A stretch of DNA of 64,000 bases from Octopus vulgaris (lineage: Eukaryota), in assembly GCA_951406725.2 (NCBI GenBank), contig OX597814.1, positions 84,258,001 through 84,322,000 of the forward strand. The letters run 5' to 3'. The translations under genes were made by a program, and so were the position numbers. Below are positions 2,385 to 62,200 of this stretch, in pieces. Below the pieces are notes generated by a model, which did no database searches, had not been told where the DNA came from, and saw only the letters and a program-made list of their open reading frames with translations. The stretch's first letter is position 1; every line of letters starts with the position of its first letter.

Positions 2385-2446
<62 letters not shown>

Positions 2447-2451
<5 letters not shown>

Positions 2452-3242
2452 GAAATATTAAAATTACTAAGTCTCTCTAAAGGAGATTACGGCAGCGGTA
2501 CTGGAAATTAATAGTTATCGCCATACTAATATGGTAGTCTTATAAATATAAGACTAAAGCTGTCGCTGATTAGCTCCAAGAGGCCACCGCCTCAAGCTAG
2601 CTATTTGACACACAACCTGCGTCCATTACAAACCTTCGAACAAGGGAGGTCAGCCGCTTCATCCTGCCAGTCAGACAGCTACAGACATGTTTCAGGGTTG
2701 TTGCCCCTTATCTATCTGACTGGCAGGATGAAGCGGCTGACCTCCCTTGTTCAAAGGTTTGTAATGGACGCAGGTTGTGTGTCAAATAGCTAGCTTGAGG
2801 CGGTGGCCTCTTGGAGCTAATCAGCGACAGCTTTAGTCTTATATTTATAAGGCTGCCATATTAGTATGGCGATAACTATTAATTTCCAGTAACGCTGCCG
2901 TAATCTCCTTTAGAGAGACTTAGTAATTTTAATATTTCTATTATTGAAAACAAGTGGATGTATTCCACTGAAACTCGGTAAATAAAGCCTTCGAACTGGG
3001 ACGATCAGTAGCGACACCTGCAAGTCTGACTACGCTGCATTGATAAGGAGCAACAACCCTGAAACATGTCTGTAGCTGTCTGACTGGCAGGATGAAGCGG
3101 CTGACCTCCCTTGTTCGAAGGTTTGTAATGGACGCAGGTTGTGTGTCAAATAGCTAGCTTGAGGCGGTGGCCTCTTGGAGCTAATCAGCGACAGCTTTAG
3201 TCTTATATTTATAAGACTACCATATTAGTATGGCGATAACTA

Positions 3243-3247
<5 letters not shown>
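2447..3247 (+). mobile_element. ORF-less HHR-containing element (retrozyme / non-autonomous PLE); 364-bp direct repeat plus 5' inverted copy
   Basis: 2715 onward repeats at 3079 (period 364). 2447-2712 is an inverted copy of the unit. Contains an HHR and is flanked by (TA)n on both sides. Confidence 0.85.
3034..3076 (+). ncRNA. Minimal type-I hammerhead ribozyme (U3-A8 variant, GUC site after 3070)
   Basis: GCUGCA-UUGAUAA-GGAG caacaa CCCU-GAAA-CAUG-UC-UGUAGC: 6-bp stem I and palindromic stem III ACAUGU. Stem II is GGGG/CCCU in the inverted copy. Confidence 0.85.
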
Positions 3248-3297
<50 letters not shown>

Positions 3298-4052: not shown

Positions 4053-5995
4053 TGGTTAGCAACAACTTCAACAGTATCGAAACAAATGAAGGAGGGAGAG
4101 GACAGTACTACAAATATAACAACAACAAAAAACAATAACTGTTGTAACCACCACAATAGGCGGGATGAGAAATGTTAGCTACTTGAAGGTAGATTATTGT
4201 GTAAAAAAAGTGAAAGAAAATACAAGTTATCTTATAATAAATGTAATAAAAAGAAATAACACCCAGCCTGTATAGCATAGAAAACATCATGTCGGCCGAC
4301 AACAAGCTCAATATGAACGAACCCATCGACCTTTCTAAAGTACCAGCGTCTATAACAAGCAGATTATCGAGCTGGGCGTGGATGTTATGGACTTCACTTA
4401 ACCACCGTGTGGTCCTCACAAGCAAAACCACCCGCACCACCACCAAAATTCCTCCTGTGCTTCACCACCCATTTGTTGTATGTATTATAAATGCTTGACC
4501 TTGTCCCTTCCCGCCACGTCCCTCTAAGGGTAGCTTAACGTTACAAACCAACTACAATAATATCCTTCAGGTGTGTGGAAGATGTGGAGCAAGTGTTATG
4601 GAGATGTTTTGTATATGTGTGTGCGTTTGTTTCGCATCCATAGGCGTGTGTGTATGTGTATTTGTGCACACATATGTGTTTATGCGCACGTATGTTTGTA
4701 CAATGATGTGACGGTGTGTTGGTGTTTTATGTGTTGGGAGGGGTTCTTATTGTATATATGTCGGTGGGAGGCATGGATGGGTATTTGTGTATATAAAAAA
4801 ATGGAAGGAAAGTGATTGCGAAAAGAAAATAAAAGCCTGTATTTCCCACTTTTCTCATGTTTTTTTTCGGATGGTTGGTAAAACGTGTGCCTTCATAGGT
4901 GTGTATGTGTTTGTGTGCTTGTGTGAATTTAGAAATACTTTCTCCCTCCTCACATATACATACCCATCTTTATTTCTACTGCTCACCACAAATCTGTGTG
5001 TTTTTGTAATTCCTGTTCATCCCTTGATCAGCCCAAGTAAAGCCTATAATAAAAGGCTTTCCAGCAATAACCATCCTGTTATGTGCCAATTTTTCTGTTT
5101 ATTTTTTATATTTTAGATGTAATGTATCTTTTTTTTTAAGTCGGTAAAGCATAATTTGAGGGAAATTTGATTGTTTGTTCTAGCAAGTCAAGCGACCACA
5201 TAGATCAGCACTTCTCAACCTTTTAACACTTAGGAAACCTTTGAACTATATCCTGTGTCTCAGAGGACCCTCATACGAAAAAAAAACTTAATTATCTTAA
5301 TCATTTTCTTTCTCCTACATACAGCTAAATTTCCCAACAGGTTGAACAAATGATAGAAGACCCTTTGACAGTGAGATAAAAAAAAAGTTTAAGGAATTTC
5401 GTCTTAATCAGAACCTTGTTTAGACCAAATTCCTTTACAATTCCTCACTAAAAAGTAATTTTCCCGTGAAATATCTTTACAACAGATACTTAAAAGTTAA
5501 TTAGAGCTATGACAACAATGCCTATATACAAGAAATAGAATCAAGTGAAGGAATCTCAAATATATCACTCAAAATATATAGTACTGTAATCTGGGACATA
5601 AGCTTATTTTTCGATATTCTGAAATACATCTTATCAGATCATGATTGAATTTTAGTAATAAAGTTGTTCTTATACAACATATCCGGGGATAGGCGGTGAG
5701 CTGACAGTAAAAATACCAAACGTATTACTTTCTGTGTTAAAATCTGTCGATGTTGGTTTTGCCTTTCATCATTCTGGGGTCGATAAAATGAAGTATCTAT
5801 AAACTTATGTAGGTAGAAATTCAGCCCTGGGTGGGGAGCGGGGAAACTCAAGGGCTGCCCTTTGAGACAAACATTCAAGCTACGCCATTGTTTTTTTGGT
5901 CTCTAATATGGTACGGATTGGTCCTCTCAAATTTCAAGGATACCAAGCATTTCTTTTTCTTTTCTTATTTTTTTGGTGGCCCACCAGGTAGTGAA

Positions 5996-51453: not shown

Positions 51454-52242
51454 TAGAATGACATAATATTTTTTCTGCTTAAAAGGCGGTGAGCTGGCAG
51501 AACCATTAGCACGCCGGGCAAAACGCTTAGCAGCATTTCGTCCGTCTTTGCGTTCTGAGTTCAAATTCCTCCAGGTGGTGGCTTTTAAACAAGTGTGACA
51601 TGTATTCATCCTGTTTATATTTTAAGGTCCTTTTAGAGTAAATTTCTTCCTCTTTTGTTGCCAAGTCTACTAAGAACTCGGTAAAAAGAATGATGCCATT
51701 GTTTTCTTTCCATGGGGTTGAAATTTAAAATGATATTTTTGAAAATTTTTGAAGAAAAAGCATTCATTTAAAAGTTGTTATCATCTTCGCAAGCCAGCTA
51801 ACAAGAGTAGACATTAACAGATTTGGCGAGAGTAAAAGAATTTGCCACTCAAAAGTTTTCCTCCACTTTTCCTATGAGCATACCCCCTCTGACAGTAACA
51901 TACTTCAATGAGTAACATAATAGCCACTGCAGTGGGCAGCAGTGACGATAACAACCACCAGACAAAGAGAAAGAACTTCCAAGTCAAGATAAAAACAATA
52001 CCGTCAACACTTGCCTTATCACGGGAAATGAACTTTTGTACTAGCAACAAATACAATCACTTCAGCAACAGAGTGACAAAAGTAACACTACTACTTGTTG
52101 CTACTCATAAACCAGCTGCATCACCACCAATCTGGCCGCCGAATGCTGCAGCAGCAGTAGTAACAACAAAAAAGTACGGCTAGATTGCGGGTTTATTAAC
52201 ATACTGCCATAGCATTGATTGGAGAGTGATAATTAAGAAACC

Positions 52243-52772
52243 ATAATTAAATCTCAGAATGAGATTGAAACAGTAATCGCTCGATAATGTAAAGTATAGA
52301 AGCCATCTTATCATGGCTAACCACATTGGGGAGGGAGTGTTACTGTAGCTTTATAGCCCCAAGAGATCTTCGTCTCTAGCTGGCTTTAGACACAATATCT
52401 GTGTCCTTGGAGTATTTGCAAAGGGAGGCCATCCCTTCCTCGCAAGCCTGAGTGATACGCTCGAACTAGTTTCGGGATTTTTGTCCCTCGTCAACGGGCG
52501 ATAACCACCAGGTAGCGATGAAAGAGAAGGCTCCTTTGCAAATAGATATAAGTTTTTCTAATGGCATCTGCCACTGATGTCGAAAAACGAACAGTAAGCA
52601 TAATTAAATCTCAGAATGAGATTGAAACAGTAATCGCTCGATAATGTAAAGTAAAGGACAGAGATATTGTGTCTAAAGCCAGCTAGAGACGAAGATCTCT
52701 TGGGGCTATAAAGCTACAGTAACACCCCCTCCCCAATGTGGTTAGCCATGATAAGATGGCTTCTATACTTTA
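52243..52772 (-). mobile_element. ORF-less HHR-containing element (retrozyme / non-autonomous PLE); 357-bp period, inverted 5' copy, 12-bp TSD
   Basis: 52242-52296 repeats at 52599-52653; 52654-52772 is the inverse of 52290-52408; AATTAAGAAACC at 52231-52242 and 52773-52784. Confidence 0.88.
52458..52500 (-). ncRNA. Minimal type-I hammerhead ribozyme (site between 52464 and 52463)
   Basis: CGCCCG-UUGACGA-GGGA caaaaa UCCC-GAAA-CUAG-UU-CGAGCG: perfect 4-bp stem II, palindromic stem III ACUAGU, one mismatch in stem I. Confidence 0.82.
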
Positions 52773-52873
52773 AATTAAGAAACCGTTTTCCTAATAATAA
52801 AGCATCATTTCCTGAAACATGTTTGAAACGGTGTCACGTGATGACGGAGTGTCGTGGATTCAAAATGATGAAC

Positions 52874-53255
52874 TCAATATCTCATGTGACCACCGTAGGC
52901 GTTGATTACTACTACCAGGCATCTTCTGTACATTGAATGCACCAAACGATTGATGAAGGCCATGGGGATAGCAGCCCACACTATTAAAACTTGCAGTGAG
53001 TTGTGCCGCAGTTGTCGGTTTAGACGGATGTCATTAAACCTTCTTTGGATATCGTCCCGCAGGTGCTCTATTGGGTTCAGATCCGGACTTAGGGCAGGCC
53101 ACGGCAGTGTCTGGATGTTGTGCTGTTGGAGGAAGTCTGTTGTCAACCTGACAGTATGGGCACGGGCGTTGTTGTGTTGGAACAGGGGATTCCGATGACA
53201 AGCAAAGTATGACACAATGTGAGGCCTCAACACTTGTCTTCTGTAAATACATGTT
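52874..53255 (-). mobile_element. Tc1-like (DD34E) transposase C-terminal remnant
   Basis: FQHNNARAH...FLQQHNIQTLPWPALSPDLNPIEHL...INRLVHSMYRRC...GGHMRY. Confidence 0.9.
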
Positions 53256-58647: not shown

Positions 58648-60650
58648 AAAAAAGGAGATGTCGAACACGAGTGGTGATATATAAAAAAGGAAATGAAGAA
58701 AATGCTGACAAATAATTGAAGTAATTTAAGTAATTTAATTAGGTGAAAGTTCTTTTTACCGGTTGCGCATTTGTTATGCTTATCAAAATATAAAAGAGAG
58801 ATTAGAGTCTGTCTCTTATATGTGAAAAAAAGAGGCTCCAGAGTTGTTTGGGATTTGCTTGGTTTCGCGCCTAAAATTTTGATTGGTCATTATGAAGGGG
58901 TCACGTGAATGTTTGAATGGAAGTTGGTGTTGGGGTAAGAAAAAAGGCTCCAGAGAAGTTAAAATTTGGCTAGTGTCCCGCCTAAAATTTCTTATTGGCC
59001 ATAATAAAGAGGTCACGTGAATGTTTAGAATTTTCGAAAATAGTGTTGTTGAAAATTCTTATTGTTCAGGCTGGTCAGTAGACGTCATGTGGATATTTTA
59101 AATAGCTTTTTAGCGCGTAGTTAGGGAGTGTATTTTCCGCTTGACTGGATAAGTAAGTTCGTTTAGAACAGGGAGAGCTGTATGTATGTATGTGTGTGCG
59201 CGCGCGCGCGCGTGTGTGTGTTTATATGTATGTTGGGGCGCGCGCGCGTGTATATATGTGTGTGTGTGTGGGTAAAATTTTCAATATTTATAGTTCTGCT
59301 GGCCTTGTGCCTGTATCGGGAAGCAACGTATTTGTGTGAAGTCAATATTTACAGCCATTTCCAAAAAATAGTGTTGGATGTTTTGCACCCGTATTCAATT
59401 ATGTGTATGTGTGGAACCATATATTTGTGTGTGTCATGGTGTTAATATCTGGGTAAAGGTGTGTGTAGGGTGTGTGCAGGTGTAAGTGTGTTTGTTGTGG
59501 GTTCGTGTTAGGGGCATGTGTTTAGAAGTGGTCTGTATTTATTAATAAGGTGGGATTCCATGGTTATTCGCTGGGTATGAGTGGCATTGTCTTTAAATTT
59601 GTAGAGGGGAAAGATTCTAAAATTGGGATGGAGTTGTGCGGCACAGGTATCAATATGTGCACTAAATGCTATTTTTCTATATTCCTGTATTTTTATTTGG
59701 GATCTGTGGACAGTCATGCGTTGGCGGAGGCTATTTTTTGTTTGGCCTATGTAGTGTTCATTACAGCCCGAGCAAGTTAAGACATATACTAGGTTTTCTG
59801 ATGCGCATGTGAAGTTGTGTTTTACTGTGAAACGTTGTCCTTGTTTAAAAAGGAATTCCGGACCTTCTATTAGGTTGATGCATATACCACAGTTGGGTCT
59901 ATTGCATTTGTTTACTGTGGGTTTAGTTGTTGTGGTTGGCAGTACTTTGGCATTTGTTAGGATGGTTTTCAATGATTTGGGTTGCCTTTTGCTCTTTATG
60001 ATTTCGTGTGTTCGGAGGATTTGGTTCATTCTATGGTCCTTTTGTAATACAGGAATGTTCTGGAGGATGGTGTCAAAAGCTTCATTGTTGAGGGGGTTGT
60101 GTGTAGAGATGTATGGTAGAGTAGATGTAACAGGTTTAGGGCGTCTAAGTTCCTGCGTGCTGAGTTTTAGGGCGCGTTGGATCCCATTGTCAATTAGTGA
60201 CGTGGGGTAATCCCTGCTTGTTAATGTGCCCTTGAGTTCTTGTAGACGTAAGAGACGGGTGTTTTTATTGGAGACTATAGTGCAAATTCTCTTGGCTAAG
60301 TTGTAGGGAATGTTAATTTTAACGTGTCTAGGGTGGCATGAATTGAAAGGGAGGTATTGCTTGGAGTCTGTGGGCTTGTAGTATATGTCTGTTTCTATTT
60401 TTTTGTTGTGAATTTTAATGAGGATGTCGAGGAAGGGAATTTGTTGAGGGCTGTATTCCATTGTGAAAATAATGTTTGTGTTGAGCCCATTTATAAGAGT
60501 GTGAAATTCGTTAAGCTTCTCGACGGTTTCGGGCCAAAGGATGAAGCAGTCATCAAGATATCTCTTCCAGTTCTTCTCTATGTGTGTGTGGAGAGTGGTG
60601 CCAAATTGGTTAAGAACGTTATTATAGAGGGTGATTTCCAGGTATCCCAT
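58646..60650 (-). mobile_element. 5'-truncated Neptune-type PLE, left arm (RT C-half + GIY-YIG ORF 59508-60650, 3' pseudo-LTR)
   Basis: MGYLE...WKRYLDD...IPFLD...CNRPNCGIC...LVYVLTCSGCNEHYIGQT...E..LI..YRPLLN. Confidence 0.95.
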
Positions 60651-60651
60651 G

Positions 60652-62200
60652 ACATTAACAAGCAGGGATTACCCCACGTCACTAATTGACAATGGGATCC
60701 AACGCGCCCTAAAACTCAGCACGCAGGAACTTAGACGCCCTAAACCTGTTACATCGAAACCCCATACTCTACCATACATCTCTACACACAACCCCCTCAA
60801 CAATGAAGCTTTTGACACCATCCTCCAGAACATTCCTGTATTACAAAAGGACCATAGAATGAACCAAATCCTCCTAACACACGAAATCATAAAGAGCAAA
60901 AGGCAACCCAAATCATTGAAAACCATCCTAACAAATGCCAAAGTACTGCCAACCACAACAACTAAACCCACAGTAAACAAATGCAATAGACCCAACTGTG
61001 GTATATGCATCAACCTAATAGAAGGTCCGGAATTCCTTTTTAAACAAGGAGAACGTTTCACAGTAAAACACAACTTCACATGCGCATCAGAAAACCTAGT
61101 ATATGTCTTAACTTGCTCGGGCTGTAATGAACACTACATAGGCCAAACAAAAAATAGCCTCCGCCAACGCATGACTGTCCACAGATCCCAAATAAAAATA
61201 CAGGAATATAGAAAAATAGCATTTAGTGCACATATTGATACCTGTGCCGCACAACTCCATCCCAATTTTAGAATCTTTCCCCTCTACAAATTTAAAGACA
61301 ATGCCACTCATACCCAGCGAATAACCATGGAATCCCACCTTATTAATAAATACAGACCACTTCTAAACACATGCCCCTAACACGAACCCACAACAAACAC
61401 ACTTACACCTGCACACACCCTACACACACCTTTACCCAGATATTAACACCATGACACACACAAATATATGGTTCCACACATACACATAATTGAATACGGG
61501 TGCAAAACATCCAACACTATTTTTTGGAAATGGCTGTAAATATTGACTTCACACAAATACGTTGCTTCCCGATACAGGCACAAGGCCAGCAGAACTATAA
61601 ATATTGAAAATTTTACCCACACACACACACATATATACACGCGCGCGCGCCCCAACATACATATAAACACACACACGCGCGCGCGCGCGCACACACATAC
61701 ATACATACAGCTCTCCCTGTTCTAAACGAACTTACTTATCCAGTCAAGCGGAAAATACACTCCCTAACTACGCGCTAAAAAGCTATTTAAAATATCCACA
61801 TGACGTCTACTGACCAGCCTGAACAATAAGAATTTTCAACAACACTATTTTCGAAAATTCTAAACATTCACGTGACCTCTTTATTATGGCCAATAAGAAA
61901 TTTTAGGCGGGACACTAGCCAAATTTTAACTTCTCTGGAGCCTTTTTTCTTACCCCAACACCAACTTCCATTCAAACATTCACGTGACCCCTTCATAATG
62001 ACCAATCAAAATTTTAGGCGCGAAACCAAGCAAATCCCAAACAACTCTGGAGCCTCTTTTTTTCACATATAAGAGACAGACTCTAATCTCTCTTTTATAT
62101 TTTGATAAGCATAACAAATGCGCAACCGGTAAAAAAGAACTTTCACCTAATTAAATTACTTAAATTACTTCAATTATTTGTCAGCATTTTCTTCATTTCC

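Follow-up and report, generated by a model that had tools for sequence, protein, structure and literature searches.

The window examined in this study, a 64,000-nt stretch of Octopus vulgaris DNA (contig OX597814.1), contains two short repetitive elements, E1 on the forward strand (2446–3248), lying between (TA)n tracts, and E2 on the reverse strand (52236–52777). Both elements had been recognized in the original prediction, with limits of 2447–3247 and 52243–52772 that are corrected here. E1 comprises an inverted arm (2446–2715), which stops at a position designated site B, and a direct arm (2709–3248) of 1.5 units of 364 nt, which stops at site A. E2 is built from a 357-nt unit, with a direct arm (52656–52236, reading the reverse-strand element) that stops at site B and a short inverted arm (52654–52777) that stops at site A. 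No ATG-initiated open reading frame of at least 40 aa lies within E1 or E2, the listed frames overlapping only their edges. The two elements are colinear despite the absence of any blastn similarity between them. In E1, a rod helix (2988–3121; closed by 2988–2996 pairing with 3113–3121) bears a type I hammerhead read by eye at 3034–3076, with a U3-A8 core variant and a predicted cut after 3070; Rfam gave no match for this hammerhead copy. The type I hammerhead of E2 (52442–52512, reverse strand), with an extended stem I and a predicted cut after 52464, matched HH9 (RF02275; 30.8 bits, E 6.6e-6) below the gathering score of 52, a resemblance that bears on the ribozyme and not on the motif downstream of it. 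As read from the sequence, the helix closing the rod is replaced wholesale between the two elements and an upstream hairpin (P6, 2953–2969 in E1) is kept, just as had been proposed. Elsewhere in the window, a perfect 1371-nt inverted repeat (58753–60123 and 60765–62135, with 641 nt between the arms) represents either a fold-back element or an assembly artefact, and the reverse strand at 52800–53200, beside E2, resembles by eye what we take to be a decayed Tc1-type transposase. Repeat-finder output on the window was swamped by microsatellites, and Rfam over the whole window returned, among 150 of the 205 matches listed, only microsatellite-driven microRNA matches and none to the motif.

Judging from sequence searches, E1 and E2 are members of a hammerhead-bearing superfamily with thousands of copies. 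DNA searches yielded 2555 (E1) and 1840 (E2) first-look candidates, 40 of which were scored for each, and a pattern for the core of the kinked stem P2 described below matched the genome 2642 times against 32 matches for the reversed-pattern control, placing the motif well beyond chance. Reading the flanks revealed a further family, E3/E4 (127 matches, 0 in controls), and a core version in which the inner closing pair is changed from A-U to G-C gave 4836 matches (0 in controls) that split into subfamilies F1–F7; a pattern with a purine at the outer closing pair gave 6 matches versus 14 in controls, one of which (L066) is a true family member. A representative alignment, A1, was made with MAFFT from 29 real copies picked from about 185 motif copies to represent the subfamilies and to include the tail. 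Because a match to the search patterns had to contain both the loop letters and three inner pairs, the invariance of these in A1 is partly built in. A covariance model built from A1 (R1), which finds families without this pattern bias, uncovered families G, G2, F9, and E1d; G comprises 1865 candidates, with top matches 98–99% alike, and F9 comprises 2615, with top matches 92–96% alike. E1, E2/F, E3, and G are 47–55% alike across the whole unit and homologous end to end, and the units of the superfamily, 353–365 nt long, are arranged in tandem or partial tandem. Contigs from other sequencing runs placed the family in four organisms, and a metagenome scan produced 17 matches, none of which extended past the seed hairpin (best 19 bits). 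The motif had no relevant match in Rfam at E values up to 10, in agreement with the original prediction, in which it could not be assigned to a known family. A type I hammerhead core was read by eye in E1, F, and G and is degenerate in old E3 copies, in which the cut triplet is also degenerate. Several successful families carry non-canonical cores (U3-A8 in E1, U3 with G8 in E2, U3 variants in F9, and C4 in G), and hammerhead cleavage may be weak or dispensable in such families.

Across the superfamily, the motif forms part of a fold of ~180 nt made up of hairpin P1, kinked stem P2, long-range helix P3, and hairpins P4 and P5. P1, a 6-bp hairpin, is present in both elements as predicted (E1, 3131–3147 with a second copy at 2767–2783; E2, 52405–52389), although it lies about 60 nt after the hammerhead cut (3070 to 3131; 52464 to 52405) and not the 70 nt first estimated, and four of its six pairs show two-sided changes in A1. 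P2 (3152–3182 and 2788–2818 in E1; 52385–52355 in E2) consists of a 4-bp outer stem, a 4×3 internal loop, and a 6-bp inner stem. The proposed compensatory change in the outer stem was confirmed as a U-A to C-G swap between E1 and E2; in the inner stem, the proposed G-C to A-U swap is real at the fourth pair, but the fifth pair in E2 is a C·A mismatch. The internal loop had been drawn as a conserved 5×4 loop, AGCUW/UUGG. Its fifth 5′ base, however, pairs with the first 3′ base (A-U in 15 copies, G-C in 13, and U·U in 1; n = 29), giving a 4×3 loop whose letters are the same in E1, E2, E3, and most F subfamilies but not invariant across the superfamily: the 5′ side is rewritten in F9, G has a 3×2 loop with other letters, and E1d has U-A where E1a has a U·U mismatch. 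The feature that persists by eye is a kink, comprising a pyrimidine mismatch, a Y-G pair, and one or two unpaired bases. An alternative register of P2 (A1 columns 30–33 with 52–55) pairs in 29 of 29 rows but was rejected as the main fold, showing no two-sided change, and an apparent A-U to U-A swap in its favor in G1 is broken in G2; it is possible as the second state of a two-state stem.

The stretch AGCnACAG, found where the original prediction had placed it, is the 5′ strand of P3 (2824–2831), which pairs with a 3′ strand at 2894–2901 in the tail between ends A and B. With a pairing partner this far downstream, the domain extends to position 2945 or so, past the limits first drawn for the motif; the equivalent strand at 3188–3195 is without a P3 partner because that copy stops at site A. 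Six of the eight P3 pairs show two-sided changes, and the helix is recovered by single-sequence folds of four lineages. Within the P3 loop lie a variable hairpin, P3a (3199–3218; second copy 2835–2854), which is the least conserved part, and P4, the predicted GCCAU-type hairpin, which is intact at 2855–2870 and carries a mutated first base (an A at 3219) in the copy originally described (3219–3234). P5 (2904–2918), a hairpin in the tail, shows no two-sided change in A1. In E2, P3 is formed by 52346–52340 with 52276–52270 and encloses P4 (52317–52302) and site A, followed by P5 (52266–52250). In family G, the P1 stem is unchanged and its loop is longer, P3 is a perfect 9-bp helix with its letters fully rewritten, and the P4 stem is changed on both sides. 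The original prediction overrated the internal loop, did not include P3 or connect the motif with the sites at which copies end, and covers only half of the object.

The 34-pair structure (P1, outer and inner P2, P3, P4, and P5) is paired in 89.3% of the cells of A1, with two-sided changes at 16 of the 34 pairs (95 cells). It outperformed all 500 of 500 shuffles in paired cells, cells with two-sided changes, and covariation score, and only 340 of 500 in pair types; when partners were slid along the alignment, the paired cells fell to 35–46%, and the real covariation score topped all six of these controls. Since relatedness inflates counts of two-sided changes, the changes were mapped on a tree. 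On a sequence-only alignment, this gave 15–18 same-branch double changes from one Watson-Crick pair to another, distributed over 14 pairs, against a null expectation with a mean of 1.8, an SD of 1.4, and a maximum of 6 in 300 simulations. The expected covariation was therefore borne out for the structure taken together, though for no single pair: none reached E < 0.05 in the tree-aware scan, the best (36–52) having an E of about 0.12. The structure was proposed from the A1 sequences themselves, and family G, which lies outside that set, obeys it although it was unused in deriving it. Single-sequence folds of E1, E2, G, and F4 recovered P1, inner P2, P3, and P4, with z-scores against shuffles of −1.19, −2.79, −4.41, and −4.00, respectively, so that the E1 domain of the window folds no better than its shuffles; folding of the lone E2 domain broke the outer P2 stem. 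RNAalifold on A1 alone predicted neither P3 nor P5, P3 being derived from the single folds and a column scan. Collectively, the covariation in A1, the tree-mapped double changes, and the single-sequence folds support selection on a folded RNA domain, as had been suspected from two copies.

Identity among five lineages, measured in 20-column windows in a profile that leaves out the E1b unit, was 0.56–0.66 in P1-P2, 0.48–0.53 in P4, 0.41–0.47 in the tail, 0.47–0.56 after site B, 0.49–0.57 in the hammerhead, and 0.30–0.52 in the rod arms. The P1-P2 motif is thus the best-kept part of the unit, albeit modestly. P6 and its equivalents, together with the stretch after site B, are conserved as much as the tail. 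Secondary structure is kept over the whole unit, including P6 and the rod. P1-P2 need not serve a reverse transcriptase (RT), as structural conservation extends to the remainder of the unit, where identity is only somewhat lower.

The ends of the copies are tied to this fold. In an end map of 146 motif copies, 31 of which read through into a tandem unit, 109 of the 115 resolved 3′ ends of E1, E2, G, and F4 fell at site A or site B, the two putative RT starts. Site A, at 3243–3248 in E1 (equivalent internal position 2879–2885) and at about 52288–52284 in E2, lies in a single-stranded loop closed by P3, 9–18 nt after P4 and 5–15 nt before the 3′ strand of P3, and its position relative to both helices is kept in four lineages whose letters there differ. 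Site B, at 2941–2945 in E1, where the inverted arm stops (window position 2446), and at about 52243–52241 in E2, lies 45–62 nt beyond A and after P5, at a distance from P5 that is not fixed (about 6–27 nt). Among 31 two-armed insertions, an arm ending at A was combined with an arm ending at B in 26, A-A and B-B combinations were each seen 0 times, and 5 were unresolved; the queries were such that one of the arms had to extend to A (for E1 and E2) or to B (for G), leaving the other arm free. By eye, the ends of F9 show the same pattern, and contigs from other sequencing runs have loose ends at the same places. The 5′ ends of 145 arms are spread over the unit, and at most 3 begin some 7 nt or less from where the hammerhead is predicted to cut. 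Many arms are longer than one unit, as expected of copies made from an uncleaved multimer or from a circle, with the E1 and E2 loci being partly selected for full length. Copies with 5′ truncation, an inverted 5′ copy, and partial tandems are all present, and (TA)n tracts flank, as a raw tally, most of the loci shown.

Structured RNA next to an RT start is familiar from other systems: 3′ stem-loops are common to stringent LINE-SINE pairs, and telomerase RNA is an RT-binding scaffold. The octopus domain is likewise a structured RNA beside such a start but differs from these in that initiation would be internal, at two sites, and within a multi-helix junction (a structural match was sought via Rfam). 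Penelope-like insertions show, in the available description, 5′ truncation, partial tandems, an inverted 5′ copy, a tail that is often at one end only, a microsatellite bias, and non-autonomous families (Craig et al. 2021, PMC8557442). The tail, inversion, partial tandems, and (TA)n targets seen here are hallmarks shared with these elements, and the segment between A and B is the Penelope 'tail'; the asymmetry of the tail, put into words in that study, is counted here as a strict A-B pairing. The class to which the superfamily corresponds is that of the metazoan non-LTR retrozymes, described as non-coding units of ~350 nt in partial tandems with one type I hammerhead each, the mussel units being 350–390 bp, and proposed to be moved by Penelope-like elements or to be non-autonomous Penelope derivatives (Cervera and de la Pena 2020, PMC7229834; bioRxiv 10.64898/2026.07.22.740005). 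The E/F/G superfamily is like them in its short tandem units, type I hammerhead, and lack of coding capacity. The published accounts of retrozymes, in the portions available, give single-sequence folds and pLTR homology, whereas a covarying domain, its link to copy ends, and the A-B rule are described here. In the main text of the octopus repeat annotation, as far as it was accessible, ribozymes are not mentioned (PMC13282606).

The closest parallel is provided by the anole Poseidon element PAc, as it is described by Frangieh et al. (2024, PMC11167929). Reverse transcription in PAc begins at a pair of internal positions flanking the tail, and the RNA that it requires (+20 to +172 in ORF numbering, the hammerhead cutting at +26) reaches from close to that cut to beyond both starts. 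The protein cuts AT-rich DNA on both strands, both of which are extended, and has been modelled as a dimer; hammerhead cleavage is dispensable. The octopus domain shares with PAc the two starts bounding a tail, the position downstream of a hammerhead, the AT-rich target, and the same relative position in the RNA. In contrast, PAc is autonomous, its signal is contained in ORF nucleotides up to 172, and only an AC-rich stem-loop is named in its description, whereas here the fold covaries and contains no ORF; the tail is also longer (45–62 nt versus 30–40). Whereas the element class, the tail, and the existence of two starts have been described before, we found no published account of the fold or of the counted A-B rule in the main texts, the supplements of which may hold relevant folds or sequences.

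Starting from what the sequences show, namely, a covarying fold, one fixed copy end within it and another after it, and the consistent pairing of A with B, we propose that the five-helix fold binds a Penelope-type RT-endonuclease and positions its two start sites, the motif being the 5′ half of the fold, and assign this reading a probability of roughly 60%. Of the functions originally offered (an RT recognition or priming signal, a circularization element, or a second ribozyme), the first is the most fitting, since end A falls inside the domain and end B follows it. An RNA in tandem or circular form, whether or not the hammerhead has cut it, would associate with a borrowed enzyme, probably a dimer, able to nick an AT-rich target on either strand; one target strand would then prime at A and the other at B through U/A-rich microhomology, and the meeting of the two cDNAs would leave the inverted structure. 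P1-P2 would likely act as a protein-contact or packing arm, in which the kink matters more than the letters of the loop.

Candidates for the enzyme are abundant in the genome. Patterns for Penelope-type RT and endonuclease gave 1245, 157, and 461 matches versus 36, 5, and 6 in the respective controls, and the young Penelope-type families are Neptune-like and Hydra-like; these and the other clade labels (Poseidon-like, Naiad-like) are ones we assume from characteristic motifs. R1 was applied to 118 Penelope-bearing loci, some overlapping, sampled from the 1245 RT and 461 endonuclease matches and covering Neptune-, Poseidon-, Naiad-, and Hydra-like families; the fold was at the end of none and occurred only as separate insertions. 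The usual SINE-LINE proof by a shared end is therefore missing, since no autonomous element end among these loci carries the fold. This differs from the non-autonomous Chlamys families, which share 3′ ends with autonomous ones in the description available (PMC8557442), and from Xenopus, in which 24 of 57 families are reported to have homology to autonomous ends (Li, Clavereau and Pollet 2026, bioRxiv 10.64898/2026.07.22.740005). At one locus (L090, 2353–2675), a G copy is joined exactly at site B to a 5′-truncated Neptune-type ORF with 2 nt of microhomology. On sequence grounds this junction fits a template jump, although it is a single case and could be a later insertion; if it is a template jump, it would name the mobilizing enzyme.

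Several observations were made on the Penelope-type families themselves. The 3′ end of a Neptune-like element (L098, about 580–670 and 5100–5240) is positioned shortly upstream of the 3′ strand of a long-range helix found by structure prediction; in this Neptune-like family, 8 of 8 copies end at one site, and no tail was seen. By this structure prediction, the Neptune-like 3′ end would parallel the fold in shape, not in sequence. A young Hydra-like family (L307, 5509–5599; L308–L320) has two 3′ ends about 90 nt apart, and its inverted insertions are mostly paired long with short, with L317 apparently having two long ends. Neptune-derived short repeats and a Hydra-like element also lie near E, G, or F9 elements (L052, L274, L276, L310); these neighbors were considered as chimeras and rejected, their mostly 3′-to-3′ arrangement across a short TA tract pointing to a shared target.

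The absence of the fold from every autonomous element among the 118 loci is also what would be expected if the domain were a scaffold for the life of the RNA as a stable circle, binding host proteins, escaping decay or double-strand sensing, or keeping the hammerhead free, with the two starts simply lying in accessible U/A-rich loops of it. This account agrees with the retention of secondary structure in P6 and the rod, beyond the region of the ends, and with the accumulation of metazoan retrozymes as structured circles thought to be protein-bound (PMC7229834, in the part available). We nevertheless consider it unlikely, given that site A is fixed relative to P4 and P3 in four lineages with differing letters and that P3 survives complete rewriting. 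Improbable, too, is a role of the conserved words as DNA, whether as an internal promoter or terminator for the next tandem unit or as an endonuclease recognition site. Tandem units need a promoter of their own, as is established for other retrozymes, and the start of P2 presumably resembles a tRNA box A; however, paired changes, including those in the long-range P3, are the prediction of an RNA helix, G and F9 are without box-A-like letters, ARAGORN finds no tRNA, and no conserved box B was seen by eye downstream in A1.

Slightly less probable still is recruitment of a host ligase by the domain, or its holding of the ends for circularization after hammerhead cleavage: the domain lies about 60 nt 3′ of the cut and copies exceed one unit, as a circular template would give, but holding the cut ends together would fall to the stem of the hammerhead itself and to the rod, and the domain is instead tied to the copy ends. 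That P2, alone or with P1 or P4, is a second self-cleaving ribozyme is very improbable. The sameness of the 4×3 loop in E1, E2, E3, and most F subfamilies would speak for it, though this was partly built into the search patterns, and the proposal is disfavored because two abundant families (G and F9) have a rewritten version of the supposed core loop and E1d has an altered one, no Rfam ribozyme family matches even at an E of 10, and the 5′ ends of the 145 arms show no pile-up in P1-P2; no pseudoknot was seen. Plain common descent without selection on structure, for which the end-to-end homology of all lineages and the lack of any individually significant pair could be cited, is scarcely credible and already largely refuted by the tree-mapped double changes, which exceed the null mean some ninefold and surpass every one of the 300 simulations, and by the adherence to the structure of G, which took no part in its derivation.

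Returning to recognition by a Penelope-type enzyme, a bolder form of this reading can be envisaged, which we offer as conjecture and hold to be rather doubtful as a whole: the domain would be the RNA half of the Penelope transposition machine, docking a dimeric telomerase-related RT-endonuclease with A directed to one strand and B to the other, recognized by shape alone, and graftable onto any RNA for (TA)n writing. Docking with A and B on separate strands would account in one step for the tail, for the inverted structure, and for the strict A-B rule, and recognition by shape alone is suggested because no autonomous element here shares the sequence of the fold. Two questions are at stake. One is the means by which RTs of the Penelope type, the nearest relatives of telomerase, select their RNA and initiate internally at two sites; the other is the way in which animal retrozymes are copied. 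A fold with natural compensated variants, in lineages about 50% alike, together with mapped starts, makes both questions directly testable.
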